Notes under the pieces: model-generated
What the model was told of the DNA's origin: nothing
What the model saw: only the letters and a program-made list of their open reading frames with translations
The model's database searches: none
Program-made: the position numbers and the translations under genes
Source: an uncultured delta proteobacterium
GTDB lineage: Bacteria; Desulfobacterota; RBG-13-43-22
Assembly (NCBI GenBank): GCA_963843145.1
Contig: CAWJJC010000002.1
Span: 106,432-170,431 of the forward strand
DNA: 64,000 nt
Direction of reading: 5' to 3'
Part shown: positions 8,449 through 63,723 of the stretch, in pieces
Layout of the letters: every line of letters begins with the position of its first letter
How positions within the stretch are numbered: position 1 is the first letter of the stretch

Positions 8449-9138
8449 ATGGCCCTTAGCCGGCCGAAGCAAATTCAAATTTCCCTGGCGGCCAATTTGG
8501 CCTACGGCCTCTGTAAACTCTGGTTTTCCACCTGCCGCGTTAAAATTCTCCAGCCGGAAATCCATCAACAATGGGCGTTAGGACCTCGGCCCTACATCGG
8601 CGCCACCTGGCACCGAGGGGCCATCTTCTATTGCTATTACTACGGCCCGCAGCATCACCAGGTCATGTTCAGCCAGAGCGAGGATGGAGAATATTTGGCC
8701 CGCTTCGCCCAAAAATGCGGCATGATACCGGTGCGGGGCTCTTCCACCCGGGGCGGGGAGCGGGCGCTGGTCCAAATGATCCGGCACCTGCGCCAGGGTC
8801 GGGGGCACTGCGCCACGGTCCTGGATGGGCCCCAGGGGCCGCGCTTCGTCGCCAAAAAAGGGTTGCTGGTCCTGGCCAAAAATACCGGGGCCCCGCTTCT
8901 GCCGGGTAACTGGTCCGCTTCCCGGGCCATCACCCTGGAAAGAACCTGGGACCGGACCATGGTCCCGGCCCCTTTCAGCCGGATCGCCATCGCCTACGGA
9001 GAGCCCCTGTTCATCCCCCGGGATTGCTCCGAGGATGATCTGGAGGGTTTCCGTCTGGAACTCGAAACCCGTATGAATAATGCGATGCGGGAAGCGGATG
9101 ATCATTGCGGGTACAGGACCCGCTGGCTGAATTCTTAG
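8449..9138 (+). CDS. Lysophospholipid acyltransferase family protein (DUF374)
   Basis: WH, SQSEDGE, VRGSSTRGG, DGPQGP, TWDRT.VP.PFS motifs. Confidence 0.85.
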   Translation: MALSRPKQIQISLAANLAYGLCKLWFSTCRVKILQPEIHQQWALGPRPYIGATWHRGAIFYCYYYGPQHHQVMFSQSEDGEYLARFAQKCGMIPVRGSSTRGGERALVQMIRHLRQGRGHCATVLDGPQGPRFVAKKGLLVLAKNTGAPLLPGNWSASRAITLERTWDRTMVPAPFSRIAIAYGEPLFIPRDCSEDDLEGFRLELETRMNNAMREADDHCGYRTRWLNS

Positions 9139-9245
9139 GGTTGCGTTTAGGGCTGTCTCCACCATTCCTGGGAACCGTGATTTATTATCGCCGCCATTTT
9201 CAACCGAGGGATATCATCACCCGTGTTGAAACTTGCTTCCTGTAA
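9138..9245 (+). ncRNA. 5' part of a candidate structured RNA/hairpin locus interrupted by the island (3' part at 25529-25599)
   Basis: TTTCAAC 9198-9204 pairs with GTTGAAA 9225-9231; outer arms pair with sequence at 25545-25599; identity unknown. Confidence 0.4.
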
Positions 9246-9463
9246 TCGTTTAAGTTGCCAATTCATAGAAATGAAAGAGTACAAACGCAAATCGTTGAAA
9301 GATGCCCCCCAGTAAGGGTTCCCGCCATAGCGAAAAATCTCCCTATTTATTATTCTCGAAACCTTGAATAATGGGGGCCATTCAAAGGCCAGATCAATAA
9401 GGTAACCTGTCTTCCAGCAACGCCAATTTGGCTTAAAGGGGAGCCAGCAAATAGAGGAAATTA

Positions 9464-9499
9464 GGAAACCCCGTTTCTCAAGCGAGAGAGGGGGTTTTT
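9464..9499 (+). terminator. Leader hairpin/terminator upstream of DUF1566 gene (homolog at 16128-16164)
   Basis: GGAAACCCCGTTTCTCAAGCGAGAGAGGGGGTTTTT stem-loop plus T run. Confidence 0.55.
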
Positions 9500-9586
9500 G
9501 ATTTTTCCCCTGATACAACAACGAAGGAAGCGAGTCCCTTTCTACGGAGATTCCTGGGCATTAAACAACAAAAAAGGAGGTTCGCA

Positions 9587-10411
9587 ATGCGTAGCAGAGA
9601 ACTATTGGCAGGATTCGTAATGGGCATTGTAATGGGGGTACTGTTTTCGGCGGCTGTGGTGCTGGCCGGGGGCCTGGAGCCGAGCGGAGGGCCGACTGCT
9701 GGCAGTTCGCAGATGTACACCCTGAATCAGATCTATAACCGGATCAACAACGGCACAGCCGCCACCAAGATGACCACGTTCACGGAGCCGAGCAGCGGGC
9801 CAGCGGCCGGGACCATGCACACGTTGGATGAGATCTACAACCTGGTGGGGTTACGCGCCCCAGTTCCCAAGACCGGGCAGACCAAAACGGTGCCCTTCGC
9901 CGCCCCCTCCGGGTCCGACGGCGACCTGCAGAAGGGGGTAGCCCGGCCGAACCCTCGATTTACGGATAACAACAACGGGACGGTGATGGACAATCTGACT
10001 GGGCTGATCTGGCTGACGAACGCCAACTGCGCCAACGCCACCAGAGACTGGCTGACCGCCTTGAGCGATGTGGTGATGCTTAATACCGCCGGCACAATGA
10101 ACGGAATAAACTGCGGCGATATCAGCAACGGCGGCAGTCATCAAATCGACTGGCGCCTGCCCAATGTCAAGGAGCTTCAGAGTCTGATCGATTATGCCTT
10201 TTACAACCCTGCTTTATCGAATACGGCCGGGACCGCGCAGTGGAAGGCGGGTGATCCGTTCACCGGCGTCCAGTCGGCTTACTACTGGTCGAGCTCTACG
10301 TACGCGGGCGATACGGGCGTCGCGTGGTACGTGGCCCTGGTCAATGGCCTTGTGGGTGGCGACGTTAAGTCGAACGCGCTCTACGTTTGGCCCGTCCGTG
10401 GTGGACAATGA
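9587..10411 (+). CDS. Secreted DUF1566 (Lcl C-terminal, C-type-lectin-like) domain protein; probable DGR target
   Basis: Signal/TM segment, PVPKTGQ, RFTDNNNGTV.DNLTGLIW, DWRLPNVKELQSL, YWSSST...AW.V....G.V.....K....YVWPVRGG; AGGAGG RBS. Confidence 0.9.
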   Translation: MRSRELLAGFVMGIVMGVLFSAAVVLAGGLEPSGGPTAGSSQMYTLNQIYNRINNGTAATKMTTFTEPSSGPAAGTMHTLDEIYNLVGLRAPVPKTGQTKTVPFAAPSGSDGDLQKGVARPNPRFTDNNNGTVMDNLTGLIWLTNANCANATRDWLTALSDVVMLNTAGTMNGINCGDISNGGSHQIDWRLPNVKELQSLIDYAFYNPALSNTAGTAQWKAGDPFTGVQSAYYWSSSTYAGDTGVAWYVALVNGLVGGDVKSNALYVWPVRGGQ

Positions 10412-10455
10412 AGATCATTGGGGTTTTTGATTCTTTGGGTTATTTGATCTTCTAT

Positions 10456-10481
10456 GGGGGTGCAGGGGGCTATGCCCCCGC
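10456..10481 (+). other. GC hairpin downstream of putative DGR variable region
   Basis: GGGGGTGCA-GGGGGC-TAT-GCCCCC-GC about 45 nt after the stop codon. Confidence 0.55.
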
Positions 10482-10561
10482 GGAGCGGAAATTTTTGAGG
10501 TTCCGGGATGGTGTTCTCAAAAAAGTTAGCTGATCAGTATCGCAGCAAGGGAGGGATTTAG

Positions 10562-11101
10562 ATGATCTACACAACGAAACCGATATTGGGTTTAGCATTG
10601 TTTGCGGCCGTTGTTCTGGCCCTGCTGGGTACGTACCAGACAGGTTCAGCAGCGGGAATGGACCCTGCGGCCAAATGGGCCTGGAGCACTAACGCCGGCT
10701 GGATCAATTTCAACCCGATCATCGGCGGAGATGTGGCCGTGTACGGGGATCACCTGGAAGGCTATATCTGGGCCGAGAATGTCGGCTGGATTCGATTGGG
10801 AACCCACACCGGCGGCAGCCCCTATACCTATGCCAACACCGATGCCACCAACTATGGGATCAACCGCGATCCCACTGGCATTTTGTCCGGCTATGCCTGG
10901 GGCGCCAACGTGGGCTGGATCAACTTTGCCCCCACCGGCGGCGGGGTGACCATTGACCCCCAGACCGGAGATTTTGCCGGTTACGCTTGGGGGGAGAATA
11001 TGGGCTGGATCAGTCTCAAAGGAGGTAGCGGGCCCAAAGCCTACGGGGTGGTCACCGATTTTAGCCAAATCTTTCTGCCCCTGATCCTGAAGTCATCGTG
11101 A
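10562..11101 (+). CDS. Secreted protein with GYAWxxNxGWIxF repeats and C-terminal IFLPLILK tail
   Basis: Signal peptide; four WAWS/YIWA/YAWG..NxGWI repeats; GGAGG RBS. Confidence 0.8.
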   Translation: MIYTTKPILGLALFAAVVLALLGTYQTGSAAGMDPAAKWAWSTNAGWINFNPIIGGDVAVYGDHLEGYIWAENVGWIRLGTHTGGSPYTYANTDATNYGINRDPTGILSGYAWGANVGWINFAPTGGGVTIDPQTGDFAGYAWGENMGWISLKGGSGPKAYGVVTDFSQIFLPLILKSS

Positions 11102-11423
11102 GGATTTAGCCGTTACCATCTTTCAAACCAAACAGAGAAGCAGGCAGGGGCACAAAAGGCCCTGCTTCGTCGCACAGTTCCATGCGTAATCGTTAGATCT
11201 CGGTAGCATACCGGCAAAACATTTGTAGGTGAATTCAATGAGGCCAGAAATATTATTTAAAATTGAAGAAATTATGTATTGGTCTCTGGAGGATACTTTT
11301 CTCATTTATTGGTTTATTTTCAGGTCCCTTTTCCCGACCATCCGGCAGACTTTTTATTTGCCTTTGAACTCTTCATAATGGGGGGACCCCCATTAACCTC
11401 CAATCCTACCAAGGAGGTACCGT

Positions 11424-12262
11424 ATGAAGACCAAAGAGGCCATTACCTTGTTCCAAACCTATCAACGGTCCAGTCATCGAAAAAGGACCCTACAGAGCTA
11501 TCTGCCGATGCTCAACCAGTTCAAGGCCCTGTACGGGGAAACGGTATTTGAAAATCTTGGGTCCGATGAGGTATACCGCTTCCTGGAGAAGCCTGACCCA
11601 GGGCTTGGCCCGATCAACCCGGAGACTACGGTATGCCCAGTTAAAATCCCTTTTCAATTTTGTGATCAACCGGTGCGATCTGGACATGAAAAACCCCTGC
11701 AATACCTCATTGCTCTCGAAAACCTTCCGGACCCCGAAACAAAGTCCCAGGAGAATTTTCGAAAAAGAGGCAATAGACGAGATCATCTACAACACCAAAA
11801 ACCTCCGGGACCGGTTGATCCTGGAACTCCAGGCCGTGTGGGCTTCGGGTCGGGGAATCCTTAAAGATCAAGGTATCGGATATCTCGGAGAGGAAAATAG
11901 TCCTCCGGGAGCCGAAGTCCGGGAAGGAGGCCGAAGTGGCCTATATGCCGGAGCCTATTGCCAAGCGATTGGAGGAATATATCCGGAACAAAAAGCTGGG
12001 GCCGGATGATCGTCTTTTTCCGGTTTCTTATTCAACGGTCAGGTCAATGATAAAAAGTCTTGGTTCCCAGCTTAAAATTTCGATCAGGCCCCATGACCTC
12101 CGGCGGCATTCAGCCACTTATGCCAGCCGGAATGGGGTCCCCCTGGAGATCGTCTCCAAGGTGATCCTGAGGCACCAGGACCTGAAGACTACCCAGGCCT
12201 ATTTGGGCAAGGTGAGCGAGACGGAAGCCATCCGGTGGATGGATATCATTCACGGAAAGTAG
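11424..12262 (+). pseudogene. Tyrosine recombinase/integrase, copy 1, frameshifted
   Basis: Near-identical to 20017-20856 but with +1 nt near 11590 and -2 nt near 11835; HDLRRH and LRHQDLKTTQAY retained; indels may be sequencing errors. Confidence 0.85.
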
Positions 12263-12845
12263 GCAGGTTAACCTTTGATTACCATTATAAATCTGGAGGT
12301 TTTGGGGGTATTTTTGGGGCGGTCTGGGAGAGGTTTTTAGGGAGACCGGGGGCTATCCGAAGAATAGCTTCCTGAAATCGTGACCTTTTTGCGATTTTAA
12401 AAATATCAGAAGAGTACAAGGCGTAATCGACGATAAATGGGTCTTGATCTTTATCGCCCTCGGAAATGGCAACAAGGCATGGGTTAAACCAAATTATTAA
12501 CGGTCTCATAATTGTATTTACACGGGGTGTTCTTTTTATCTCTCGCCCGCTTGGCTCGAGTTCGCCGAGGGCGCAGAGAAAGACGAATTTCCTTTTTGAA
12601 AAATCGCGGAGACGCCGATTTTCCAAAAGAACTCACGCCTCAGGCGGGGTCTTATTCGCGGAGCGGGAGATTTTGTCTTTGGTTGTGGCTGGGCGGCGTT
12701 AAGAAATCCTGTCAATATTATTTTGAGACCGTTAATAAGTATATTGGGCAAAGTAGGCTAAATAAAAATTAGATATCAGCAAGAAAGGTATAATGTTCAG
12801 CCTTCCAAGCACAATAAACTTAAGTGGTTACGTTTAGGTGTATTT

Positions 12846-14705
12846 CCTAAATCCACCACCTAATTTTTGACAGATCGATATTCCTATTTTTAAATGCTAT
12901 TTTTACTGGCGGTTAAAGCCTATGGCCCCGGAGGAGGCCCTGCTTGCTCAATTATTTATAAAAAAACAACCTCCATTAGCTCGGTGGGCACAAGAATGGG
13001 CGCATTTCATCCTTTTCCTGGAAAATTACCCTGACCATCACCAAACGAATCCTTTTAGGTTAATTGGGTGCCCAATTACCCTGAGGACACCGGATCAAGG
13101 GCCATGATCCGGCCTCTGGCCTCCAGAAGAAGATCAAACGCCGGATGTCCTTTCACCAACCGAATGATCAATTCTCGGGAACGTTCAACAATGCGCCCGG
13201 GTAGGTTAATAAACGAAAACCGAATCGCCTTCATTCGCTTGGATACCCAGGACTTCCCTAAAACCAACTGCTTCATGACGCTATTAAGGTTCAAGGCCAA
13301 AATCATGATCCAAAACCAGGCGGCATTCTCACCAAAATCACCAGAAGGTAATTGCCCTCCGGCCAAATCTCCTTTCATTACCGAATGGGCCTCCTCGGAC
13401 TTCCCACAACGCTTTCGATGCCAGTCAATCAAGGCCCCCCCCATCCCAATTCATGTTCGTCACCACCCCGAAAAGCTTGTACCCTTGCCTGCCCATTTGC
13501 ATCGTCGGAAAAGGTAACGACTGCTGTAATGCGGCCATCCCTGGCAGCGTCATCGACCCCATCCCCTCCCGGATGGCCAAGTACCGATACACCGGGGACT
13601 TCTTACTATAGCCCATCTTTCCGGGAACAAAACAAACCTCGGCCCATTCCTGATTCGTCTTGATCCGATACCCTTCCGACCTCCTTGTAAATCACCTTCC
13701 ATTCTGATTCCTCTACTTCCAAAACCGCCCTCTTAAACTCCGGGGTCACATCACAGCCAATCGCAAACTCGATCCGACCAAATCGCTCCTCCTTCCCTTC
13801 TTCACAGTATCGGAGTAGCTCATGCTGATATCCCGCCGTGTCGGAACGTAATCGGACTTTCTCAACCCCTTCCGGCAGTAAAGCCAACGCCTCCTTCAAT
13901 GACCCGCAATTGCTCATATCCCGCCGGAACATTCCCATCCCGAAACTCCGTATGCAAGACCATCTCCTGTTCCGCCCACCAGGTGTTCAATGGCTGGTAG
14001 GCTTTGTATCCTTTGTAGCCATATAAAGCCTCCCGCTTCGCCGTCTCCACCAAGGTCGCATCCTGATCCAGCGTCGCTACCTTTTGGGGATTCTGCTTCT
14101 GCATAAAATCAACCATTTCTCCGTTCACCTTCTCTAATCCCCTCAGAGCCTCATTCTTGACCGGTATGAACGCCTTCCCCTCCACTCGTTTCTTCTCTTG
14201 CTCCGCATCGTGAAATAATGACAAATATCGAAAAACTGCAGAGGCGGAAGGCACCGTTCGTCTCCGTTCCTTTCGCCAACGACGCTCCGCCTCCCGTCTC
14301 TCCTGTCGTTTCATCCCTTTGTGTTCTATTCGCCTTAATACCTGACAAAATCCATCATCCCCCTCCAACCGGCGTAAATCCTCCACACAATCCCCGCCCG
14401 CAAGATTCATCAATATCAACGAGAGTACCGTCTGGGCATCCGTCCAGCCTTGCTTCTTTAGGTGTAAATGCCTCTCTATGCTGCCCGCCTATCCCCATCA
14501 CCGAAGCTAAATCCAGATAAACCGGCAATCCCCCCAACGCCGTCATCCCCGTCTCTTTCTTCTCTTCTTCGTACTTGAATGAGAGAACTCCTTGTGTCAT
14601 ACTGCCTTCACCTCGTTGATGATAGTTTTTTCTTGTAAAAAAACTCTATCACCTCGTTCCATCGAGATCAACGAGGTTTTATATTTTTTTGATGGTGAAT
14701 TAAGG
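12846..14705 (-). mobile_element. IS1380-family insertion sequence with frameshifted transposase
   Basis: IRs CCTAAATCCACCACC (12846-12860) and revcomp CCTTAATTCACCATC (14691-14705), 12/15 match; 5-bp TSD TATTT at 12841-12845 and 14706-14710. Confidence 0.85.
13076..14600 (-). pseudogene. IS1380-family DDE transposase in about five fragments
   Basis: TLDQDAT, YQPL..WWAE...HTEFRDGNVPA, RLRSDTAGY, WH.KRCGKSEEAHSVMK.DL, LPSGDFGENAAW motifs spread over shifted frames. Confidence 0.85.
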
Positions 14706-14800
14706 TATTTTTGCTTTTATTGAATATGCTGAAACTTTCTGATATTATCCAGGAAACCGTTCAATGAATTGGGCGTCGTTAACTAGAAAGGGAGTGAATC

Positions 14801-15671
14801 GTGATTCGTCAGACCATCCTTATCATCGCGTGGGTTCTCGTCAGCGCTGTCCCAGGATTGCTCGCTGCAGATTTGAACCCTCCAATTCTTCGTACTTCAC
14901 AGTTCGATCAGCAATGGCTTGACACCGTCGTATCAATTGAACGACAGGTCGAAAAAAAAATGGTTCCGATCGGTACTGGCTTCATCGTAGCGACTGCTCG
15001 TAAGCACCTACTCCTTGTCACCGCGAAGCACGTCGTTAAAGACGAAAAGGGAGGATTTCGGGGTGATCTCTTTTATCGCCTAAATCGAGCTGGCGGCTCT
15101 AGCCAACAGCTAAAGGATGCTGATCTCGTCAAAGCTGGCATAGGCGCTTGGTTCGAGTCCCCCAAAATGATGTTGCAGTCCGCTTCTTGCCCATTGTCCA
15201 GGGCGCGTCGGTGAAAGCGATACCCCCTTGACCGCTTTATCGAACAAACACAGGTCGAGGCTGGGGCTCCGCTGGTGGCGCTTGGATTCCCAATGGGGCT
15301 ACGCTCTCTGGATCATGCCTTGCCGATCGCCCGTCGGGGGATGATCGGGCCGCGCGGGCTCCAATTCGCTCCTGGCAGACCTCTTTATCTTTCCCGGAAA
15401 CAGTGGCGGGCCTGTGCTGTATGTGCCAGCATTCAAGACCGGTGGGGTCTCCTTTGGCGAGGGGGTCGTTCATAACGAGATGCTCGTCGGCATTGTGTTG
15501 TCGTTCATCCCGTACCGAGATGTTGCGGTAAGCGAGCAAACTAAGCGTCCCAGGGTCGTGTTCGAAGAGAATTCGGGCTTGGCAAACCTGGTACCAGCGT
15601 GGGTCTTGAAACGGTTCATCACGACGGGATCTGTCGACTCTCTCGATCAGCAACTCGGCCTACCGAAGTAG
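14801..15671 (+). pseudogene. Secreted trypsin-like serine protease, frameshifted
   Basis: Signal peptide, GTGF, LVTAKHVV (His), GFPMG, and FPGNSGGP (Ser) near 15390-15412 in a shifted frame. Confidence 0.75.
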
Positions 15672-15678
15672 GTCCCCC

Positions 15679-15781
15679 GCCAACCAGCAAATGAACCCGA
15701 TAAGCAACCACGGGGCAAGTCTCCCGATTTTATCCCAAAGTTCTTAGCCGTGGTTGCTTGCGGGTTATCCGCCCGCTACTC
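15679..15781 (+). other. attC-like imperfect palindrome after the protease gene
   Basis: GCCAAC..AACCCG..AAGCAACCACGG / CCGTGGTTGCTT..CGGGTT..GCTAC; 12-bp perfect inverted repeat. Confidence 0.45.
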
Positions 15782-16127
15782 TAACTTTCAAACCGCAATC
15801 ATTAAATTTCAGTTCAGTTCCTGATCAACATTTGTAGGTGTGTAGGTGTACAGAGAAATTATGGGGTGAGGAGGCAGTTTTTTGAGGGATATCAAGATGT
15901 TCTTCCTGAAGTCATGTTTTTGATGAATGGGCCATTTTGGAAGACTTCAAACGAAAAGTGTTGCTCGAACTCCCACCTTGCTCTTCCCACCCAACGAAAT
16001 TAAAGTCCTACTTACGAGGCAAAAAATAGTGTATACTTCTGTTCATTCTAAGTTCATAACAATCGAATAACCCTCTTCCAGTTTTGCCACTACACTTTTA
16101 GGGAGGGCACACAGATGAGAGATTTCT

Positions 16128-16164
16128 GGAAACCCCGTTTCTCAAACGAGAGGCGGGGTTTTTT
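16128..16164 (+). terminator. Leader hairpin/terminator upstream of cyclase gene (homolog of 9464-9499)
   Basis: GGAAACCCCGTTTCTCAAACGAGAGGCGGGGTTTTTT. Confidence 0.6.
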
Positions 16165-16179
16165 GCTGGAGGGTTTATT

Positions 16180-19100
16180 TTGATTTGTCCCAAGTGTCGA
16201 ACCGACCTTCCTGAGGGGGCAAATTTCTGCCTGAAGTGTGGGCATGACCTTAAGGCAGACACTGCTGCTCCCGAACCTCACCACGCTCCTGAAGCTGAGC
16301 GCAAGCACGTTACCGTCCTGTTCTCGGATCTCACCGGTTACACGGCCCTGACGGAGAAGTTTGACCCCGAGCAGGTCAAGCAAATAACCGGACACATCTT
16401 CACCAGGGTCAAAGAGATCGTTGCCAATTACGAGGGCTTCATTGATCGATTGATGGGTGACGGGGTGCTGGCCTTTTTCGGAATCCCGAAGGCCCACGAA
16501 GACGACCCGGGCCGGGCCGTTCAGGCCGCCATCGAGATCCATGCCTTCGTCAAAGGGCTCAGTCCCCAATACGAAAGCCGCATCGGGGTTCCCCTGTCCA
16601 TGCACAGTGGGATCAATACTGGTCTGGTGGTGACGGCCGAGGTGGACCTTGAGAAAGGTTCCCAGGAGGTAACGGGGGAGGCGGTCAACCTGGCCGCGCG
16701 CCTCAGCGGTCTGGCCAAACCCGGTGAAATCCTGGCGGGTGAGGAGACGGTGCGGCGGACCAGAGGGCGGTTCGAGTTTCAGGACCTGGGGGCCAAACGG
16801 GTCAAAGGGAAGGCCGAACCGGTTATCGTATTTAGGCTGATTTCCGCCAGAGCTCAAACGCAAAGCCTGGATCGCCAAGTCTCTTCCGTCATGGTGGGTC
16901 GGGACCAGGAGTTGAACCGGCTTGAGTTGCAGGTGATGAAGTCCATCAACGGTGAAGGGTCGGTGGTGAATATCATAGGGGAAGCGGGCATCGGGAAATC
17001 CCGCCTCATGGCCGAGCTGCGCCAGCGCGAGGTTATACAAAAAGTCATCCTCCAGGAAGGCCGGGCCATCTCCATCGGCCGGAACCTGAGTTTTCACCCC
17101 TTCATCTATCTGTTGAAACAGTGGGCCAGGATCTCCGAAGAGGACTCGGAAGGCTGCCGCCTTCGACAAGCTGGACCGGACCATCCGGTCGATCCACCCG
17201 GAAGAGGCCGATGAAATACTGCCCTTCGTGGCCACCCTCATGAGCATGAAGCTGAAGGGGAAATACTGCTGAACGAGTCCGGGGAATCGAAGGCGAGGCC
17301 CTGGAGAAGCTGATCTTCAAAAACCTCCGCGAGTTGCTCATCCAGGGGAGCGAACAAACCCCGCTGGTCATCGTCATGGAGGACCTGCATTGGGCCGATA
17401 CAAGCTCCCTTTTACTCCTGCAATCCCTCCTCCGCCTGACCGAGAAACATCGGATTCTCTTCATCAACCTGTTCCGGCCCGGCTACTGGCAGGGAGAGGA
17501 CGGGTCCATGGAAAAGATCGGCGACCTGCTGCCCAAACACTACGTGGAGCTGAAAATCCAGCCCCTGGACCCGCAGGCCGGCGAGGCCCTCATTGCCAAC
17601 CTGCTGAACATCCCGGGGCTGCCCTATTCCCTCCGACAGCAGATCATCGAACGGAGCGGCGGCAACCCCTTTTTTATCGAAGAAGTGGCCCGCTCCCTGA
17701 TCGAAGACGGGGCCATCATCCGTTCCGGCGAGTCCTTTGAAGTGACTGATAAGATCACCTCGGTAGTGGTCCCCTCGACCATCAACGATGTGCTGATCGC
17801 TCGGATCGACCGCTTGGAAGAACAGACCCGGGAGTTGGTCAAAACGGCCGCGGTGATCGGACGGAGTTTCTTCGACCGGATCATCAGGGATGTGGCCGCT
17901 TCGATCGACGGGCTGGACCATCGACTGGGCTACCTCAAGGATACCCAACTGATCCGGGACCGGGTGCGGATGGAAGAGTTGGAGTATTTCTTCAAACACG
18001 CCCTTGCCCAGGAGGCGGCCTACGAATCCACCCTCATCCAGCAGCGCAAGGGCTTGCATCTCAAGGTGGCGAAGTCTATAGAAAAGGTCTTCCAAGAGAG
18101 ACTCCACGAGTTCTACGGCCTGTTGGCCTTTCACTACGGGAAAGGGGAAGACCTGGAAAAGACGGAAGAATACATGGCCAAGGCCGGGGAGGAAGCCCTG
18201 TGGGCGTCCGCCTCCAGTGAGGCCCTGCACTACTACCAGGAGGCTTTGAGACTCTATGTGAACAAACAGGGCCAGGCCGCCGACCCGGAAAAGCTGGCCC
18301 AGTACGAGAAAAACATTGCCATTGCCCTGGCCAGTAAAGGGCAGCTTGTCGAATCCGTCAAATACTTCGAAAAGGTGCTGGACCGCTGGGGGGCGCCACT
18401 GCCAAAAAAAGGCCTGGCCGCTATGGTTAGACTCATCGGTGATTTTTTGGTTATTATCAAGGCGCTCTATATTGGTCAGCACCGAACCAGGAAGGCGCTT
18501 AACGAAAGGGAAAACGAAATATTAGAGTGCTCCTGGAGAGTCGCCACAGCGCTCAGCTATTTCGATGTTTTCCAGTATATGAAGGTTTCCATGGGCACTA
18601 TGAAGAGACACATTAGAACCGGCATTTCAACCCTGCCTAATGGATGGAACGCTTGGGTGGCAATATCCGGGGCTTTTTTATGGCTTTCCTTTAAGCTCAG
18701 TAACCGGATGCTGGAGATCTCACAACGGCTTGGGAAGGCGGTAGATATCGGAGGCCGAATTCATTTTGCTTGCTGGAGCACTTTTAACCAGCACTGTCAG
18801 GGAACCTGGGACCAGATCAAGGAGATGGATAGAGATTTATTGGATTCTTCGCTTGGAATTGGAGAATTCTATAACTATGGAACCTATTTGTGGTCTTATG
18901 GCGTGGTTAAAGGGGAACAGGGGGAGTTTAAGGAGGTGCTGCAGATAATTGAAACTTTATTCAATAGCTGGTCAGTCCTATGACAAAAGCGAAATTACGT
19001 TAAATGCCATAGGCCTGAAAATAGATTTTTTGGTCCGGAAGAGGGTGGCCTATGATTTCCTGTATGGAAGCTGATCAGTTTTTTCTATATGCCCGCGAAA

Positions 19101-19733
19101 AAGGGACCGAACTCCATGAGCTTGGGGGGCATGGCATTCAAGGCTGAATCCCAGATACTACTCAGCGATTGGGACGGGGCCAACGAATCGCTGTCACAAG
19201 CCAAGGCGATTTATGATAGGCAGAAGCGGATCATCCCTGTTGCCGCTGCCCCTTATCTTGCGGCACATCTATTGTTTAATATCCATCGCTTGGAACAGGC
19301 TGTCCTTTCGGGGGATTCCTCGAACCTGGCTCCTATCCGCAAGCAGGCCTATCAGTCCGGCCAAGCAGCGGTCCGAAATTCACGCAAATACGCCCCTTAC
19401 CGGACCAAGATCTTCAGACTGATGGGGCGCTACTACTGGCTGGTCGGCAAGCAGCGCCAGGCGCTTAAGTGGTGGGCGCGGACCATCCGGGAAGGCGAAC
19501 GACTCGGGGCACGCCCCGATCTGGCCCGCACCTATTTTGAGGTGGGCAAATCCCTGATAGAACCTCAAAGCAACTACCGGGAACTCAACGGCCTCAGCGC
19601 CCAAGAATATCTGGACAAGGCCGAGAAGCTGTTCCGGGAGATGGACCTCCAATGGGACTTGGAGCAACTGGAACGGGTGGGCAGTGCGTGGTTAGACTTC
19701 GAGTCCGGCAGCAAACAGATTCTTGCACGCTGA
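16180..19733 (+). pseudogene. Zinc-ribbon + class III adenylate/guanylate cyclase + AAA ATPase + TPR-like protein, frameshifted
   Basis: CPKC..CLKCG, ERKHVTVLFSDLTGYT, GDGVLAFFG, GINTG, VNLAARL, GEAGIGKSRL, MEDLHWAD, GGNPFFIEE; breaks near 17155-17275 and 18960-19090. Confidence 0.85.
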
Positions 19734-20016
19734 AAAAGAATTGCGATTAATGAACCCTTAAGGATGATGAACATTTTTAACCGTAATCGTTGAATCTTGT
19801 GTTCGGTAAAAAACAACAGTTGTAGGTGCATTCAACGAAACCTTAAATATAAAGTAAAATTAGTTATTTAAGAAAATGACCTTTGAGGGATTCCCGTTTT
19901 TTAGGTTATATTTGCCGGGTCATTTTCAGACCATACCTCAGCCTTTTTATTTGCCTTTGAAATCCTCATAATGGGGGGACCCCCATTAACCTCCAACCCC
20001 ACCGAGGAGGTGCCGT

Positions 20017-20856
20017 ATGAAGACCAAAGAGGCTATTACCTTGTTCCAAACCTATCAGCGGTCCAGTCACCGGAAAAGGACCCTTCAGAGCTATCTGCCG
20101 ATGCTCAACCAGTTCAAGGCCCTGTACGGGGATACGGTATTCGAAAATCTCGGGTCTGATGAGGTATACCGCTTCCTGGAGAGCCTGACCCAGGGTTTGG
20201 CCCGATCAACCCGTAGACTCCGGTATGCCCAGCTCAAGTCCCTTTTCAATTTTGTCATCAACCGGTGCGACCTGGACATGAAAAACCCCTGCAACACCTC
20301 GCTGCTCTCCAAGACCTTCCGGACCCCGAAACAGAGCCCCAGGAGAATTTTCGAAAAAGAGGCGATCCATGAGATTATCTACAACACCAAAAACCTCCGA
20401 GACCGGTTGATCCTGGAACTCCAGGCTCGCTGTGGGCTTCGGGTCGGGGAGTCTTTAAAGATCAAGGTATCGGATATCTCGGAGAGGAAAATAGTCCTCC
20501 GGGAGCCGAAGTCCGGGAAAGATGCCGAGGTGGCCTATATGCCGGAGCCGATTGCCAAGCGTTTGGAGGAATATGTCCGAACCCAAAAACTGGGGCCGGA
20601 TGATCGTCTTTTCCCGGTTTCTTATTCAACGGTCAGGTCATTGATCAAAAGCCTTGGGTCCCAGCTTAAAATTTCGATCAGGCCCCATGACCTCCGGCGG
20701 CATTCGGCCACTTATGCCAGTCGAAATGGGGTCCCCTTGGAGATTGTCTCCAAGGTCATTTTGAGGCACCAGGACTTGAAGACCACCCAGGCCTATTTGG
20801 GCAGGGTGAGCGAGACGGAAGCCATCCGGTGGATGGACATCATTCACGGGAAGTAG
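20017..20856 (+). CDS. Tyrosine recombinase/site-specific integrase, copy 2, intact (279 aa)
   Basis: Catalytic residues in GLRVGE (R), KSG (K), HDLRR (H-x-x-R), LRHQDLKTTQAY (H, Y); GGAGG RBS. Confidence 0.92.
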   Translation: MKTKEAITLFQTYQRSSHRKRTLQSYLPMLNQFKALYGDTVFENLGSDEVYRFLESLTQGLARSTRRLRYAQLKSLFNFVINRCDLDMKNPCNTSLLSKTFRTPKQSPRRIFEKEAIHEIIYNTKNLRDRLILELQARCGLRVGESLKIKVSDISERKIVLREPKSGKDAEVAYMPEPIAKRLEEYVRTQKLGPDDRLFPVSYSTVRSLIKSLGSQLKISIRPHDLRRHSATYASRNGVPLEIVSKVILRHQDLKTTQAYLGRVSETEAIRWMDIIHGK

Positions 20857-21238
20857 GCAGGTTAACCTGTTGATTACCATTATAAATATGGAGGTTTTGG
20901 GGGTGTTTTTGAGGCGGCCTGGTGGAGGTTTTTAGGGAGACCGGGGGCTATCCGAAGAATAGCTTCCTGTAGTTTTGTTTTAGAATTATGGCCTGACCTG
21001 CCAGATTTCAAACGAAAATTATTAGTCATCACCCAAATAGACACGGTGAAGGTATCCCCAGCTTTTTTCCACGAGCCTATCCCTACCAGGATCAATAAAA
21101 TACTCTTTTTGCCTTATTGACATTGAGTCTTTCCCGATCAATAATTCATTAATATTATGAAGATACTAATATTTCCAGGTTAGGGGTCCTGCTGTAAGTT
21201 TGAATAAACCACTATTGAGCGATGGAGGCCTGTCAGCG

Positions 21239-22839
21239 ATGAAATTCATTCGAATCCTGATCCTCGGGATTGTTAGCCTATTTCCAGCTTTTATAATAGT
21301 TCCTTCATCTCAAGCGGTCGATGCCGTGGTCGGGGGGGCCTGTACGGATACAGAATTCAATACGGCTTTGAACACCGTTCAAAGCACGGGAGGCGGAACG
21401 ATTACCTTCAACTGCGGCACGTCGCCGGTCATCATTACCGTAACCGGGGCCAAGCCCATCAGCAGCCAAACGACCATTGACGGTGGATCCCTGATCACTC
21501 TCAGCGGCGCGAATGCCTCTCGGGTTTTCTTGGTGAATCCGGGCATATCGCTAACGTTAAATAACCTGACCGTCACCAAGGGTTTGAGCAGTAGCGATGA
21601 CGGCGGTGCGATTCGTAACGAGGGTACACTGAACATTAATAACTGTAAATTCATCAACAACCAAACCGGCTCGGCGTGGAGCGGCGGAGCCATCGTCAGT
21701 TATGGACCGCTGAATATTGCCGATAGCGAATTCGCGAACAACTCGGCCGGGAACGGTGGCGCGCTTTACCCTCGCTACGCGCCTGCCGTAACCACCATTA
21801 CCCGCAGTACTTTTCACGACAACGTGGCTATAAACACGACCGACGGCTGGGGCGGGGCGATCCTGGCCTGGGATGGCGCGCCGGTGACGATTGAGGGCAG
21901 CGACATCTTCAACAACAGTAGTGCTAATTTTGGGGGGGTATCTACATCTCCCCCAATTCGTCGGTCACTTTCAACGGAAGCACGCTTCACGACAACACGG
22001 CCGGATTCACCGGCGGTGGTGTCTACAACAACAACGGCACGGCGACCCTGACCAACGTCACTCTCAGCGGCAACTCGACCAGTCTGGGCAGCGGCGGCGG
22101 AATCGGCAACAATAATAACGGCACGGCGACCCTGACCAACGTCACCCTCAGCGGCAACTCGGTCTCTTTTGGCGGGGGCGGATTTTCCAACTTAAACAAC
22201 GGCACGGCGACCCTGACCAACGTCACCCTCAGCGGCAACTCGGCCGGATACGCCGGCGGTGGTGTCTACAACAACAACGGCACGGCGACCCTGACCAACG
22301 TCACTCTCAGCGGCAACTCGGTCTCTTATCACGGCGGCGGATTCTACAACATAGACGGCACGGCGACCCTGACCAACGTCACCCTCAGCGGCAACTCGGC
22401 CCCTTATGGCGGCGGTATCTACCAAATCGGTTCCCTCAGTGGCCAGATCGTGAAGCTGAAGAATTCCATCGTAGCCAACAGCCCTGAGGGTGGAAACTGT
22501 TTTCAAAGTCCAAGCAGTTCGACCAACATCACATCAAGCGGTTTCAATCTTTCCAGCGACAACTCCTGCACGTCATATTTCACTCAAGCCGGCGATCAAA
22601 ATAACAAACCCGCGCAGCTCGGTCCTTTGGCGAACAACGGCGGATTTACGCTGACGCATCTGCCGCTGCCCCCCATCGCAGGAGGCACGGGTCCGATTGA
22701 TAATGGCTCTTGCCTGGTCGGGTCATTTGACCAACGCGGCGTGATGCGCCCTCAAGGATTGGCATGCGATATCGGCGCGGTGGAGTACCGCCAGGGGGAG
22801 CTAACACCGTGGTTGTACCTGCCGCTGATCGAGAGATAG
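21239..22839 (+). pseudogene. Secreted beta-helix (GGAI/FxxN Pmp-like repeat) protein with choice-of-anchor-Q-like C-terminus; single frameshift
   Basis: Signal peptide, GGAI/FxxN repeats, LGPLANNGG..THLP, DQRG..RPQG.ACDIGAVE, ends LYLPLIER; frame break at G7 run 21932-21938. Confidence 0.8.
22030..22400 (+). repeat. Five intragenic ~78-84 bp tandem repeats (NNGTATLTNVTLSGNS..GGG)
   Basis: ACGGCACGGCGACCCTGACCAACGTCACYCTCAGCGGCAACTCG recurs five times. Confidence 0.9.
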
Positions 22840-23485
22840 AAATCCGTTTTTTCTTAGAACATGAAGAAAATATTCCGAGTCCCCCCAAGGGGTACCAATT
22901 TGAATCCTGTCCCGTGTTTTACCGCTGATTAGCCGGTTTGGCTGAACACCTTCAATCGGTAATCCTTTATTCCTCAAGCTTATGGTGTTCAACAGTAGTA
23001 GGTGACATCCTCAAGCCCAGGGGAAGAAGCCGATTTTCAAGTAATATTGGGGGCTTCTTCCTGTAGTCTTGTTTTTGAATTTTGGCAATCCCTGCAAAAT
23101 TGTGGCGGTAATCCTTAATGAGACGGTGGGAGATTTAACTTCCCGCAGGACTTCGCCTCAATCGGAATTCACCCTTAAGGTCTCGGATCTGCAACCTCCT
23201 CGGTTCAGGCAATGTTTTTGGAGATCCGCTACTTGGAAAAAATAAAAAAATACAGCCTTTCTCATCGTATAATACCTTGTTTACCCTATTCTTTTTTTAA
23301 TTTCAAAATCATATTTCTTTAATAGAATGACAGAAAGGTGAAATCTGCCAATTTTTAGGGGATAGCCTCGGCCCTAGCCTCCTTCCTGGAGACAAAATTA
23401 AGAGGTCGTTTCCAATTATTTGCACTTTGCATTCCAGTTGATTTTTATCTGGCAGGGTATGAATTGAACGGAGGAAGGGGAAAAG

Positions 23486-25113
23486 ATGAACATAAAAAAA
23501 GCAGATTCTTGCTGTTATTTTTAACTATTGGATTGATCATGGTCACGCTTTGGTCCGCCCATTCCCTCCAGGCCGCTACCAACATCAAATTGAGCGGCGT
23601 CATGCCGTCTTTCGGGGATGTTGATTCTTTCGGGATCAGTCCGGACGGCCGATATGCCGTATATTTGGCGGACCAAGACACCGACGGAGTTTTCGAGCTT
23701 TACAGCGTCCGCTTGGGGGGAGGGCCTCCAACTCGACTCAATCCCCTTCTCCCGTCTGGTAGAGGGGTATATTCGTACCGGATAAGTCCGGATAGCGGTC
23801 GGGTGGTCTATTTGGCCAACCAAGAGACAGCTTCTGCCTTCGAGTTGTTCAGCGTCCCGATTGGAGGCCCGGCAGCCGCCGGGGTCAAGCTCAACGGGGC
23901 ACTGGTGTCTGGCGGAAATGTTTCTAATAATTTCCAGCTTAGTCCGGATAGCAACCGAGTGGTGTATGTAGCCGACCAGGAGTAGGTAACGTTAACCAAC
24001 TTTACAGCGTCCCGATTGGAGGCCCGGCGGCGGACGGTGTCAAGCTCAACGGGACTTTAGTCCTTAATGGGAATGTAACTGGGTTTAGGATCAGCCCCGA
24101 CAGCCGCCGGGTGGTTTATCTATCCGATCGGGACACCGCCGGGGTTGTCGAGATGTACAGCGTCCCGATCGGGGGACCAGCGATGGCCGGGGTAAAACTT
24201 AGCGTTCCCCTGGTTTCTCCCGGGAATATTAATGGATTTTTCTTTATCAGCTCGGACAGTAGTCGAGTGGTTTATGATGCCCAACCGACGGCTACTGTCT
24301 CTGAGCTGTACAGCGTCCCAATCTGGAGGTCCGGCGGCGGCCGGTGTCAGGCTCAACGACCCTCTGGGTTCCGGTAAGAATATTTTTGATTTTCGGATCA
24401 GCCCGGACAGTAGCCGAGTGGTTTATATCTCCGATCAACAGACGGCTACTGTTCTTGAGCTATACAGCGTCCCAATCGGAGGTCCGGCGGCGGCCAGGAT
24501 TAAGCTAAATGGGGCCTTGGCCCTCAACGGGAATGTCACCGCTATTCAGATCAGCCCGGACAGCCGTCGGGTGGTTTATAACGCCGACCAGCAAACCGAT
24601 CAAGTCTTTGAGTTGTACAGCGTTCCCATCACGGGTCCAGCGGCAGCCGGGGTCAAGCTCAACGGTCCCCTATCACCCGGCGGGGTCGTGGTGGCCGGAT
24701 CAGCCCGGATAGCGGTCAGGTGGTTTATTACGCCACCCAACTTACGGATAATGTCCCTGGGCTTTACAGTGTCCCCATCACGGGTCCGGCGGCGAATGCG
24801 GTCAAAATCACACCCCCCCTGGTCCAGGTCAATGGGGGATGGTGGGAAATCAGTCCGGAGGGAAGCCGGGTGGTTTATATCGGGAACCAACAGATGACGA
24901 CTGTCTCTGAGTTGTACAGCACCCCCGTAGGGACCGGCGGCGGCCGGGGTCAAGCTTAACGGTCCTTTAACCCTCAATGGGAATGTTACCATCTTCGAGA
25001 TTAGTCCGGACAACGGACGGGTTCTCTATGTCGCTGATCAGGATACCGACGAGGTATTTGAGCTCTATATGACTTCCAATTATTTGATCTATTTGCCCCT
25101 GATTTTGAAGTAG
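23486..25113 (+). pseudogene. Secreted TolB/PD40-like beta-propeller repeat protein, multiply frameshifted
   Basis: About nine repeats of ISPDSxRVVYxxDQxTxxVxELYSVPIGGPAAAGVKLNG; signal peptide after A-run at 23494-23500; ends YLIYLPLILK-stop at 25113. Confidence 0.8.
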
Positions 25114-25602
25114 GGCTAATGGGGATTCAAGTCTTTCTCTGCCCTCTCCAAGGGGAAAAATTGCAATCGGGAAAACCACTCTTCGGGAATAGGTTCTGAA
25201 GGAGGAATGCTTCCAGCAGCTTTTCTCTGTTTCCATAAAGACAAAGGCCTAGCCAAAAAATACCCAACCCCTTTTTTACTGATTTTGGTAATCCTTGAAT
25301 ACTAAAATCTAACGAGTCCTACATATTTGGAGGGTCTGCCGTGTAAAACATGTGACTAGTCGGTTAAAGTCCGACCATTGGAATTCGGTAGCTCGTCCAC
25401 GTAGCTGGGGGGAGGGAGTCAAGGAGATCCGCTCATTAAAACAGTATAGGAGGATTAATCTCCTTCAAAATCGGTTGAAGAGTTCAAAGGATAATTACTG
25501 ATTTCTGGAATGGTCTTGGTGAAAGACTTGTAGGTGTACATCGCCACGAAACCCCTCTGGAGATGGGGTAAGGCTTACATTTTCGGAGCGAAGATATCCT
25601 CT

Positions 25603-26256
25603 TTAATCCTGCCAGCCGTGATCGCCGATCAGGCTGACGAAACGCACCCCGCCCAAATCTTCTTGAATGACTCCCTGCTCCGTTTTGCTGAGGCGTAACA
25701 GGTTTTGGGAAAAACGGTCTCCCACCGGGATCACCAGGCGGCCTTGAGGAGCCAACTGCTGGAGATAGGCTTCCGGGACCCTGGGGGCCGCGGCGGTGAC
25801 GATGATCCCGTCGAAGGGGCTTTCCTCCGGCCAGCCATAGGTGCCGTCAAAAACCTTGATCAGCACATTGTGATAGTGAAGCTGGTCCAGGATCTTTCGG
25901 GCCCTGATCACCAGGGGACGGACCCGTTCGATGGAATAGACCTTTTTGCAGGTTTCGGCCAGGACGGCGGTCTGGTAGCCTGAACCTGTCCCGATTTCCA
26001 GGATGTTTTCCTGACCGGTGAGCCCTAAGGATTGGGTCATGAGGGCCACGATATAGGGCTGAGAGATGGTCTGATGTTCACCGATCGGCAGGGGATAATC
26101 GTTGTAGGCTTCTCCCCAGAGGGCTTCTTCGATGAAGAGGTGACGGGGCACCCGGCCCATAGCCTTCAAGACCCCCGGGTCGGTAATGCCCCGGGGAAGG
26201 AGCTGTTCTTTGACCATCCGTTCCCGGGCTTTTTGAAAGTCCTGTGTCGGCTTCAT
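25603..26256 (-). CDS. pcm: Protein-L-isoaspartate O-methyltransferase
   Basis: VPRHLF, PLPIGEHQTISQPY, LEIGTGSGYQTAVLA, PFDGIIVTAA, GRLVIPVG. Confidence 0.95.
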   Translation of the reverse strand: MKPTQDFQKARERMVKEQLLPRGITDPGVLKAMGRVPRHLFIEEALWGEAYNDYPLPIGEHQTISQPYIVALMTQSLGLTGQENILEIGTGSGYQTAVLAETCKKVYSIERVRPLVIRARKILDQLHYHNVLIKVFDGTYGWPEESPFDGIIVTAAAPRVPEAYLQQLAPQGRLVIPVGDRFSQNLLRLSKTEQGVIQEDLGGVRFVSLIGDHGWQD

Positions 26257-26753: not shown

Positions 26754-27126
26754 GGCTTAATTAATTTATCCGCTCCTTTATAGAATAGCAGCGCTCCCCC
26801 AAAATAGCTATTCTATAGTCCAGAAATTACAAAAAATCAAGCCTTCCATCCGTCAGGCCAAACATTTTTGACGCTTCGCCTATGGGAGTAGGGGCCACAG
26901 TAGGGGATAGATTGACCTGAAATTGGGTCTCCGTGGCCGACGGGTCTCGGCGAAAGGGTTTTCCAAAGGCACTCCGAACTCCGAATCCGCGCCTAAATTA
27001 ATAATTCTTATTCGCCAGGTCCCGTCGGCCAGACCAGATTTTATGACGGGGTTTCATCCGGTTGATCGGGACCCAGAGCTTTTTTTAGTCGATAGACAAA
27101 ATCGGAGATCCAGCTAATTCTATCTC

Positions 27127-62730: not shown

Positions 62731-63723
62731 CTAAAAGCCAATCAATTCCCGCACGCCGGCCAGGGTCCGCTCGGCAAAGGCCCTGGACTTGCGATTACCG
62801 TCCTCCAAAATCTGGCGCACCTCGTCGAGGTTTCGGCTCAGGTACTCCCGCTTGGTCCGGACCGGTTCCAAGGCCTCGATCACCCTTTTGATCAGCCGTT
62901 TTTTACAGTCCACACAACCGATGCCCGCTTTTCGGCATTCCCGGTTGATTTCGGCAATGGTTTCCGGAGGGGAATAAATCTTATGGAAAGGAAACAGGAC
63001 GCAGACCTCGGGATCACCCGGATCATTTCGCCGAGCCCGCTGGGGGTCGGTGACCATCTGGGAGAGTTTGCGGCGGACCTCCTCCAAAGAGTCGGACAGG
63101 AAAACGGAATTATTGTAGCTTTTGCTCATTTTCCGGCCATCGATACCCAGCAGTTTGGGTACCTCGGTGAGCAACAACTCCGGTACCGGGAAGAACTCGC
63201 CGTAGAGGAAATTAAAGCGTCGGGCGATTTCCCGGGTCAATTCCACGTGCGGCGCCTGGTCGATGCCCACCGGCACGGCATGGGCCTGGTACATGAGGAT
63301 ATCCGCGGCTTGCAGCACCGGGTAGCCCAGAAAGCCGTAGGTGGCGATGTCCTTACTTTCCAGTTCCTGCTGCTGTTCCTTGTAGGTGGGATTCCGTTCC
63401 AGCCAGGCCAGGGGGGTGATCATGGACAGGATCAGGTGGAGCTCCGCGTGTTCCTTAACGGCCGATTGGAGAAAAAAAGTGCAGATTTCGGGATCGAGCC
63501 CGACGCTGATCCAATCGATGACCATCTCCAGGATATGGGCCTGGATCCCCTTGGGGTCCTTATATTCGGTGGTCAGGGCGTGCCAGTCGGCAATGAAAAA
63601 GAAACACTGATATTCATACTGGAGTTCTTTCCAGTTGGCCAGGGCGCCGTGCAGATTGCCCAAATGCAGGTTCCCGGTCGGGCGCATGCCGCTTAATATT
63701 CTCTTTTTAGTGGGTTTTTCCAT
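62731..63723 (-). CDS. trpS: Tryptophanyl-tRNA synthetase
   Basis: SGMRPTG.LHLGN (HIGH), YPVLQAADIL, VPVGIDQ, KMSKS. Confidence 0.96.
   Translation of the reverse strand: MEKPTKKRILSGMRPTGNLHLGNLHGALANWKELQYEYQCFFFIADWHALTTEYKDPKGIQAHILEMVIDWISVGLDPEICTFFLQSAVKEHAELHLILSMITPLAWLERNPTYKEQQQELESKDIATYGFLGYPVLQAADILMYQAHAVPVGIDQAPHVELTREIARRFNFLYGEFFPVPELLLTEVPKLLGIDGRKMSKSYNNSVFLSDSLEEVRRKLSQMVTDPQRARRNDPGDPEVCVLFPFHKIYSPPETIAEINRECRKAGIGCVDCKKRLIKRVIEALEPVRTKREYLSRNLDEVRQILEDGNRKSRAFAERTLAGVRELIGF

Follow-up and report, generated by a model that had tools for sequence, protein, structure and literature searches.

An array of five gene modules lies between two convergent conserved genes on a 64,000-nucleotide stretch of DNA from an uncultured delta proteobacterium (GTDB lineage Bacteria; Desulfobacterota; RBG-13-43-22), positions 106,432 to 170,431 of the forward strand of contig CAWJJC010000002.1 in assembly GCA_963843145.1. 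We call this whole stretch the window, and positions given without a contig name refer to it; the genome (G000) is assembled in 32 contigs with an estimated contamination of 6.9%. Each cargo module opens with an end that we term L and closes with one that we term R, and the intervals from R to the next L are linkers, two of which hold a gene, intact in one case, for a tyrosine recombinase of 279 amino acids (aa). Here we describe the ends, linkers and cargo of this array, compare them across related genomes, and ask what kind of gene-exchange system they belong to.

The L pattern CTTCCTGWARTY occurs five times in the window, always on the plus strand, with starts at 9236, 12368, 15902, 20963 and 23057; in shuffled versions of the window 0.12 copies are expected, and no more than one was found in any of 100 shuffles. 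The R pattern TGTAGGTG has six copies against 0.46 expected, of which four end at 11231, 15840, 19828 and 25536 and the sixth, at 63381, is not related to the array. In module 2, the R centre lies in a tandem duplicate (TGTAGGTGTGTAGGTG, 15833–15848, the second copy at 15841–15848), and the R site ending at 23004 reads AGTAGGTG, which departs from the pattern. Five L centres (CTTCCTG) and five R centres (GTAGGTG) alternate strictly over 9236–25536, so that the alternation noted in a first-pass annotation, made from the sequence alone, is borne out far above the shuffle expectation. All ends lie on the plus strand. The L end of module 1 (9236–9310), with its centre followed by a subterminal motif, matches the end model R1 (at G000:C2:115664-115738), and those of modules 2 to 5 (12368–12442, 15902–15976, 20963–21037 and 23057–23131) match both the L pattern and an end profile. 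The R end of module 1 (11164–11231) consists of the subterminal motif and then the centre; those of module 2 (15773–15840) and module 4 (22937–23004) carry the duplicated and the variant centre, respectively, and those of module 3 (19761–19828) and module 5 (25469–25536, the last of the array) match the R pattern and an end profile. Rfam and tRNA scans of the window returned a single tRNA-Val, distant from the array, and a promoter and terminator scan of 9000–26000 found no enrichment relative to shuffles.

Two of the R-to-L intervals are linker (S) modules with a recombinase gene, at 11232–12367 (1136 bp) and 19829–20962 (1134 bp), and two are short, namely a gene-less S module at 15841–15901 (61 bp) and a linker at 23005–23056 (52 bp); all lie on the plus strand. 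The earlier description of these intervals as either a recombinase gene or a short spacer overlooked that one recombinase copy is a frameshifted pseudogene. That copy, at 11424–12262, persists as two open reading frame (ORF) pieces (11424–11864 and 11936–12262), carries +1 and −2 indels relative to the intact gene, and appears in tblastn as pieces of 72–99% identity. A third copy in this genome, on G000:C20, has a +1 insertion and is a mosaic of the other two. Some frameshifts in this genome may be assembly errors, although the −2 indel is unlikely to be one. The bounds of the intact linker follow from a comparison of the three copies and from another species, in which a contig of 1153 bp spans exactly AGTAGTAGGTG to GCTTCCTG, R centre to L centre. 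Short and recombinase-bearing linkers have the same ends, and the 3′ part of the 61-bp linker, as read from its letters, resembles the 3′ end of the recombinase-bearing one. The recombinase-bearing linkers would be the autonomous version of the linker modules; in one linker, a class IV aminotransferase gene takes the place of the recombinase. Beyond the last R end, the stretch 25537–25602 (+) appears linker-like from a reading of its letters and runs into TTAATCCTGCC, where homology to genomes of the same genus resumes. At 20943–20967, a 9-bp stem (GGGGGCTAT...ATAGCTTCC), with a T-rich run behind it, ends in the L centre that closes the linker with the intact recombinase gene; it could terminate transcription of that gene or belong to the site.

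The intact gene (20017–20856, +) encodes a protein with a SAM-like core-binding domain (PF02899/PF13495) and a PF00589 catalytic domain (1.7e-19), and with no arm-binding domain, which is the architecture of a simple Xer-type recombinase. Its best NCBIfam model is XerA_Arch, at 117 bits against a cut-off of 220, and it scores below every curated Xer cut-off. Its nearest solved structures are XerA (4a8e, 5hxy), followed by XerD (1a0p). Judged by these scores, the recombinase is Xer-like but not a named Xer. Residues R142, H224, R227, H251 and Y260, which we take to be catalytic, are invariant in 26 homologues. The prior view that the enzyme is not of the IntI type holds: it reaches 55.4 bits on the integron-integrase model TIGR02249 (cut-off 265), over residues 15–191 only, and 29.7 bits on NF011946 (cut-off 435), and no IntI chain is found among its PDB matches at 1e-5. 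The family is large, with 2543 proteins at E ≤ 1e-10 among 3145 candidates, and in contigs sampled at one genome per species a relative is encoded in 383 of the 471 candidate stretches. The top 80 of these come from records of Syntrophales, Syntrophorhabdales, Thermodesulfobacteriota and Nitrospirota, with single records labelled Ignavibacteria, Acidobacteria and Geobacter. A tblastn search at 1e-20 over 72,556 plasmid records gave no match.

The five cargo modules hold unrelated genes. Cargo 1 (9587–11101, +) consists of an Lcl_C (DUF1566) gene at 9587–10411 (Pfam, 2.9e-26) and a 179-aa ORF without a family at 10562–11101, and a paralogous module lies on G000:C27. In cargo 2 (12443–15772), the region 12368–15840 had been thought to encode a protease; none was found there, and it instead contains a dispersed repeat (12494–12740) and, on the minus strand at about 13076–14488, a degraded DDE transposase (DDE_Tnp_1_4 at 5.3e-11 and 2.9e-09). 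Cargo 3 (16180–19733, +) has a zinc-ribbon/cyclase/AAA_16/TPR gene split into 16180–17214 and 17334–18983, followed by a 214-aa ORF (Pfam); its paralogue, in a module on G000:C28, is intact at 1133 aa. Cargo 4 (21200–22839, +) is a Chlam_PMP/beta-helix repeat protein in two ORFs (Pfam), and cargo 5 (23464–24897, +) contains PD40 beta-propeller repeats at 23464–23985 and 24232–24897 (Pfam). The cyclase-AAA, beta-helix and beta-propeller domains named previously are thus present, each divided over separate ORFs. It was also correctly noted that the L-to-R units lack a recombinase of their own: the only PF00589 matches within 9236–25536 are the two linker copies. In a scan of 29 cargo ORFs, taken from the window and from another 17 modules in the genome, we found signalling proteins (PAS histidine kinases, cyclase-AAA_16-TPR, a PAS-HD_5 protein, a cNMP-binding protein and BTAD-TPR), secreted or surface proteins (Lcl_C, Chlam_PMP, Big_12/13, BNR/sortilin, PD40 and DUF4394) and one carboxylesterase, and 7 of the 29 had no family. 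The cargo ORFs are mostly co-oriented with the L-to-R direction, the first usually begins 220–400 nt after L, and there are often several. The cargo modules, 2–8 kb long, look like whole transcription units, with a promoter-like site in one module only.

The same arrangement recurs throughout the genome. End profiles found 27 L and 24 R ends at E < 0.01, covariance-type models found 33 and 25, and 24 L and 22 R sites have exact centres. For the latter, the next site on the same strand within 12 kb after an L is R in 17 of 24 cases, L in 2 and absent in 5; after an R it is L in 7 of 22 cases and absent in 15, and two R sites never follow one another. L-to-R distances are 1995–8135 bp, and the seven R-to-L gaps measure 53, 53, 54, 1135, 1136, 1137 and 2076 bp. 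Because L is so regularly followed by R, the unit is L-cargo-R, and most units are single; the five-module array of the window is the largest in the genome. These counts also bear on the proposal that the mobile entity is not the cargo but the 1.13-kb recombinase element, an insertion sequence (IS)-like integrative element whose 50–60 bp linkers would be MITE-like derivatives, inserted at a conserved intergenic junction with the L-to-R interval immobile. The element is indeed multicopy with exact ends, the linkers resemble internally deleted copies, many homologues (nearly all of the best 120 are 279 aa long) sit on contigs of about 1.0–1.4 kb, and the L centre is indeed the target of a different element, which has two recombinases. 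In this genome, however, L and R sites are mostly not adjacent to one another but form L...R pairs 2–8 kb apart (17 of 24 L), and the L-to-R unit itself occurs in unrelated contexts in three genomes. We regard the IS-like explanation as improbable.

The relation between the two ends was resolved by aligning them in either orientation. With the 7-bp centres left out, the flanks of L and of reverse-complemented R have a similarity score of 3.51, compared with 0.46 ± 0.44 for a null of column permutations (z = 6.9; none of 2000 permutations equals it), and 2.98 of the 3.51 comes from the cargo-side arm. The ten sites of the window align without gaps as inverted copies, with invariant columns in the centre and the cargo-side arm. 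The L consensus is ..ag.atT.CTTCCTGaA.TCtTgtTTTT and the reverse-complemented R consensus ...gatT.CACCTACaA.TcTTcaA, with AAnTCTT common to both on the cargo side. A module is accordingly framed by two inverted copies of one core site with unlike 7-bp centres, CTTCCTG and CACCTAC, and because of this alignment each junction looks like a complete core site and not a half. From the consensus, the two arms of a site appear to have partial dyad symmetry (T/A at ±2 and A/T at ±4). An accessory motif, TTTCAAACGGTAATC, is also present about 30–40 bp inside each module end as a subterminal direct repeat: every L end has AGATTTCAAACGnnAATCGTT about 38 nt further in from the core, and every R end has TTTCAAACGnTAATCGTT about 30 nt ahead of the core, in the same orientation as at the L ends.

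In the first-pass annotation, by comparison, L and R were the two parts of a split site CTTCC-TGTAG-GTG, hybrid products of the integration of a cargo circle, from which cargo would be excised by L-by-R recombination in the manner of attL/attR or of integron cassettes. This model draws on the TGTAG that three of the five window L sites share with the R sites, on arm-like motifs placed on the cargo side of the cargo ends, as in attP, and on the dyad AACAnT..TnnTGTT that results when the left flank of R is joined to the right flank of L. Yet the direct alignment that it implies has a z of only −1.3. The family-wide L consensus after CTTCC is TGaA. (CTTCCTGaA.TC), so the TGTAG is not a general feature of both ends, and within the window the L and R of one module agree at only 3–5 of 6 bases after CTTCC. 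Neither the predicted product CTTCCTGTAGGTG nor any other joined L+R site was found in this genome or in 21 genomes of the order, and a linker-less junction between cargo modules is likewise missing from the profile matches in this genome. Among 134 loci there was no real joined or empty site, the four strict matches being ordinary L ends, and a metagenome scan for the joined pattern yielded three matches, all in unrelated coding sequence; two public soil runs, searched as short contigs (shares 0.13 and 0.07), contained no joints, a result that is uninformative either way. We therefore consider the split-site model unlikely, and the rejoining of L with R is not sustained.

Comparisons of module copies place their boundaries at the centres. 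The linker and module 4 of the window are duplicated at G000:C20:538917-542152 with 96.8% identity over 3.2 kb; the identity breaks right past the R centre, after GTG, and the upstream neighbour differs. A module on G000:C28 is 97–98% identical to one on G001:C12 and 94–96% identical to copies at two places in G003, all in unrelated contexts, whereas flanking chromosomal genes of these three genomes are about 87% identical. Identity among the copies of this module begins at TTCTTCCTG, the L centre, and among the three copies in G001 and G003, which have a common R end, it stops at TAGGTG. That the L-to-R intervals are discrete units bounded by the sites, as first suggested, is thus confirmed in other genomes. 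The locus of the window is itself variable in the four genomes of the genus, with about 0.2 kb in G002 (some 200 bp of unrelated sequence with a short ORF), 2 kb in G001, 11.6 kb of other content bearing L and R ends in G003, and 16.5 kb here. Content at this locus differs among the relatives, none of which has a clean empty site there. In G003 and G001, a cargo homologue of 78% identity has no L or R ends at E < 0.05.

These breakpoints also speak to the idea that the two ends belong to a static repeat family with a regulatory or structural role (promoters, terminators or REP-like sequences) and undergo no present recombination. Such repeats could well border whole transcription units, as the modules seem to be, and could persist in the many genomes that lack the recombinase, and no recombination product has been observed. 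But static repeats would not account for homology that breaks exactly at site centres, for modules that are more similar between species than the flanking genes, or for the association of two different recombinase elements with the sites. Nor is a coding frame or a hairpin conserved in the ends. A protein-coding frame on the minus strand through the junction, hinted at by the consensus, was rejected, as no frame is preferentially open (15–24 of 70 L ends and 0–24 of 63 R ends are open, depending on frame), and folding of three R-linker-L junctions as DNA on both strands gave z values of +1.6, +1.6, −1.2, −2.6, −0.2 and −0.5, with no consistent hairpin. We judge the static-repeat explanation very improbable.

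The association of recombinase and sites recurs in other species, as had been anticipated. At 26 of 71 loci with a full-length homologue, CTTCC followed by an L-type end lies 100–146 nt past the stop codon, and in many of these an R-type end lies about 190–310 nt upstream of the start. Co-oriented arrays of the form R-REC-L-R-L-R-REC-L, in which REC is the recombinase, are present at four loci of other species (L062, L063, L066 and L073).

Across 41 relatives the numbers of L and R matches co-vary. With the covariance-type models, the L/R counts are 33/25 in G000, 22/19 in G001, 99/92 in G010, 62/39 in G012, 71/78 in G014 and 38/41 in G020; among 20 further genomes of the family, 19 have L matches and all have R matches, and either is found in only a few of 20 genomes from other families. 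The recombinase is much sparser, reaching E ≤ 1e-20 in 8 of the 41 genomes and a full-length match in G000 and G012 only. Most modules are therefore non-autonomous, whether as relics or because they would be moved in trans or by another enzyme. The linkers of G010 and G014 are uniform in length and conserved in sequence, which argues for a function of the linker.

This distribution raises the question of whether the modules are true dif-type modules moved by the host XerC/XerD, with the 279-aa gene a passenger or a parasite of the linker. The abundance of modules in genomes without this gene is expected in that case, as are the inverted sites and the alternation of two module types, which is the layout of dif modules, and the linker that carries an aminotransferase in place of a recombinase. 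G014, moreover, has just four PF00589 matches, two of them Xer-sized (302 and 315 aa), and little else. On the other hand, the recombinase gene occupies the linker in the same orientation across several bacterial orders, and the partial dyad symmetry of the arms, as we read the consensus, suits one protein and not a XerC/XerD pair. A search for the host dif with a dif motif gave 18 matches compared with 10 in a control and no clear site. We think it unlikely that the modules are moved by the host recombinases.

Based on these observations, we propose, with confidence a little better than even, that the array is part of a module-exchange system located on the chromosome, in which cargo modules framed by inverted sites with unlike centres alternate with linkers, some of which carry the recombinase. 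The catalyst would be the 279-aa recombinase. Because the invariant parts of the sites are exactly the two 7-mers, each between similar arms, we take these to be the crossover regions. The recombinase is expected to bind each site as a dimer, and strand exchange would require identical centres, so that L would recombine only with L and R only with R. Such like-with-like exchange would remove or add a cargo module together with a linker, in the form of a circle, or would swap a cargo module by a double exchange. The unlike centres should block inversion or loss by L-by-R recombination, which fits the fixed orientation of the cargo and the absent joined sites, and like-with-like exchange fits breakpoints at both centres.

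Several findings sit poorly with this proposal. Only one of the three recombinase copies in this genome is intact, and the module-rich genomes G010 and G014 have no recombinase homologue at E ≤ 1e-20. Similarity in the linker-side arm is weak (0.52 of the score of 3.51). At the 71 homologue loci, profiles trained mainly on this family find L downstream in 13, R upstream in 12 and both in 7, and the Nitrospirota loci show neither, although counts in distant lineages are lower bounds with such profiles. No cargo-cargo junction without a linker occurs among the profile matches in this genome. A clean empty site is absent from the locus of the window in G001, G002 and G003 and from a second locus, G000:C6, where 3.6 kb is replaced in G003 by 94 bp of unrelated sequence with an indistinct boundary. 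The joined L+R site missing from this genome and its order belongs here as well, as does the fact that no circle or other recombination product was seen. Finally, a block duplicated in G012 does not end at the L centre but runs on past it for about 65 bp. This block, at loci L013 and L014, comprises 3.2 kb (a cargo module, a recombinase linker and one L end) at 99% identity, and its point of divergence coincides with the end of the subterminal motif, which exchange at the centre leaves unexplained.

The closest analogue is the dif (pdif) modules of Acinetobacter plasmids (PMC13141974, PMC12907356, PMC10132070). In that system, C and D modules are delimited by pdif sites in inverse orientation and have to alternate, with exchange taking place between sites whose central spacers are identical or nearly so (PMC13141974). 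The parallels are several. There as here, a module has the same type of recombinase site at both ends, in inverse orientation; two module types, with different arms facing inward, alternate, as they do in the window and in the other arrays; some modules have no ORF; and the sites are the target of a further mobile element, which belongs to the IS1202 family there and is the two-recombinase element in CTTCCTG here. The claim that the sites resemble nothing known consequently fails for their layout, which corresponds to that of dif modules as described in PMC13141974. The differences are that our site sequences depart from the XerC/XerD-type 28-mers described, with their 6-bp spacer; that each module has two fixed, unlike 7-bp centres and an extra subterminal motif at each end; that a single Xer-like recombinase, dedicated to the system, is encoded within a module; that the setting is chromosomal, in a delta-proteobacterial lineage, with up to about 100 ends of each kind per genome; and that the cargo consists of signalling and surface genes and not of resistance or toxin-antitoxin genes.

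Like integrons, the system forms tyrosine-recombinase-linked arrays of co-oriented, unrelated, recombinase-less units whose content is hypervariable between relatives. Unlike in integrons, the recombinase is far below the integron-integrase cut-off (55 bits compared with 265), the junctions have no consistent hairpin of the attC kind by DNA folding of three junctions, and no integrase with attI stands at the array end, the recombinase copies lying instead between modules 1 and 2 and between modules 3 and 4. Integron cassettes are mostly promoterless single ORFs, whereas the units here are 2–8 kb long with leaders of 220–400 nt and often several ORFs. The ends also differ from lambda-type attL and attR, in that the overlap is not the same in the L and R of a module and no empty or joined site was found. 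Arrays of the ICESt1/ICESt3 type arise when integrative elements and cis-mobilizable elements (CIMEs), recombinase-less units with the sites of a recombinase encoded nearby, accrete in tandem; these repeat one direct att core, and the unit ends here are inverted with unlike centres. In laboratory recombinase-mediated cassette exchange, sites with common arms and incompatible spacers allow a cassette to be swapped but not lost or inverted. That arrangement is engineered, and the system proposed here would, by analogy, be a natural counterpart.

To our knowledge, gene-capture systems built on site-specific recombination are few, namely integrons, dif modules and island accretion, and such systems shape bacterial trait acquisition. 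A literature search (without supplements) returned only work on integrons and Acinetobacter dif modules and no description of this system; it appears to be an undescribed form of the dif-module logic, set apart by its sites, its dedicated recombinase, its place on the chromosome, its phylum and its cargo. The original notion of a gene-capture platform of non-autonomous cassettes thus stands as regards discrete units without a recombinase, and falls as regards the joining of split L and R sites and the novelty of the layout. More tentatively, and with somewhat less than even confidence, we suggest a third independent gene-module platform beside integrons and dif modules, one of natural cassette exchange by a dedicated single Xer-like recombinase that is itself module-borne and would swap entire transcription units between inverted sites with two incompatible centres. 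If so, up to about 7% of some genomes, on the assumption that a 4.1-Mb genome holds about 100 modules with a length of about 3 kb each, would be exchangeable signalling and surface genes. The module-exchange proposal, if true, would extend dif-module logic to the chromosomes of uncultured anaerobes, with sensors, cyclases and adhesin-like proteins as cargo, and would account for part of the strain-level variation in gene content in these lineages. The compact recombinase, together with two naturally heterospecific sites, is also a candidate tool for cassette exchange.

A layered ecology is apparent in the second element that takes the L centre as its insertion site. This element of 2.1 kb encodes tyrosine recombinases of 379 and 297 aa, both with PF00589, has perfect 10-bp terminal inverted repeats (CTATACGTAC...GTACGTATAG), and is inserted exactly in the L centre with CTTCCTG as a direct repeat at its flanks. 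It is found at about G000:C10 93050–95150 (−) and G000:C28 349775–351870 (−), from about 72770 to the contig end on G000:C13, and at locus L104, and its 297-aa recombinase has matches in 14 of the 41 relatives at E ≤ 1e-30. It seems to parasitize the L site, much in the way that IS1202-family elements target pdif sites. Another insert, of about 400 bp, lies inside the L centre at locus L138 (G010:C85, 9019–9524, −), with CTTCCTG and CTTCC at its flanks and a 95-aa ORF that by eye is a putative small DNA-binding protein. At locus L163 (G010:C83, 2615–4995, −), an HTH_17 (excisionase-type) ORF and the gene for a divergent 396-aa tyrosine recombinase come after an R end that has no L nearby; this may be another integrative element that uses R, or the acting enzyme where the 279-aa gene is missing.

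Two further observations concern sequences in and around the array. At the array position in two relatives (L031, G002:C35, about 530–730, and L032, G001:C10) lies a short ORF ending in ...RVVGNHDEVL, which by eye resembles the C-terminus of a small toxin-type protein. The stretches 12494–12740, in cargo 2, and 26893–27000 are two short dispersed repeats that are unrelated to the L and R ends; each belongs to a set with dozens of copies over the contigs of this genome at 80–93% identity, and many matches are found in three genomes of the same genus as well.

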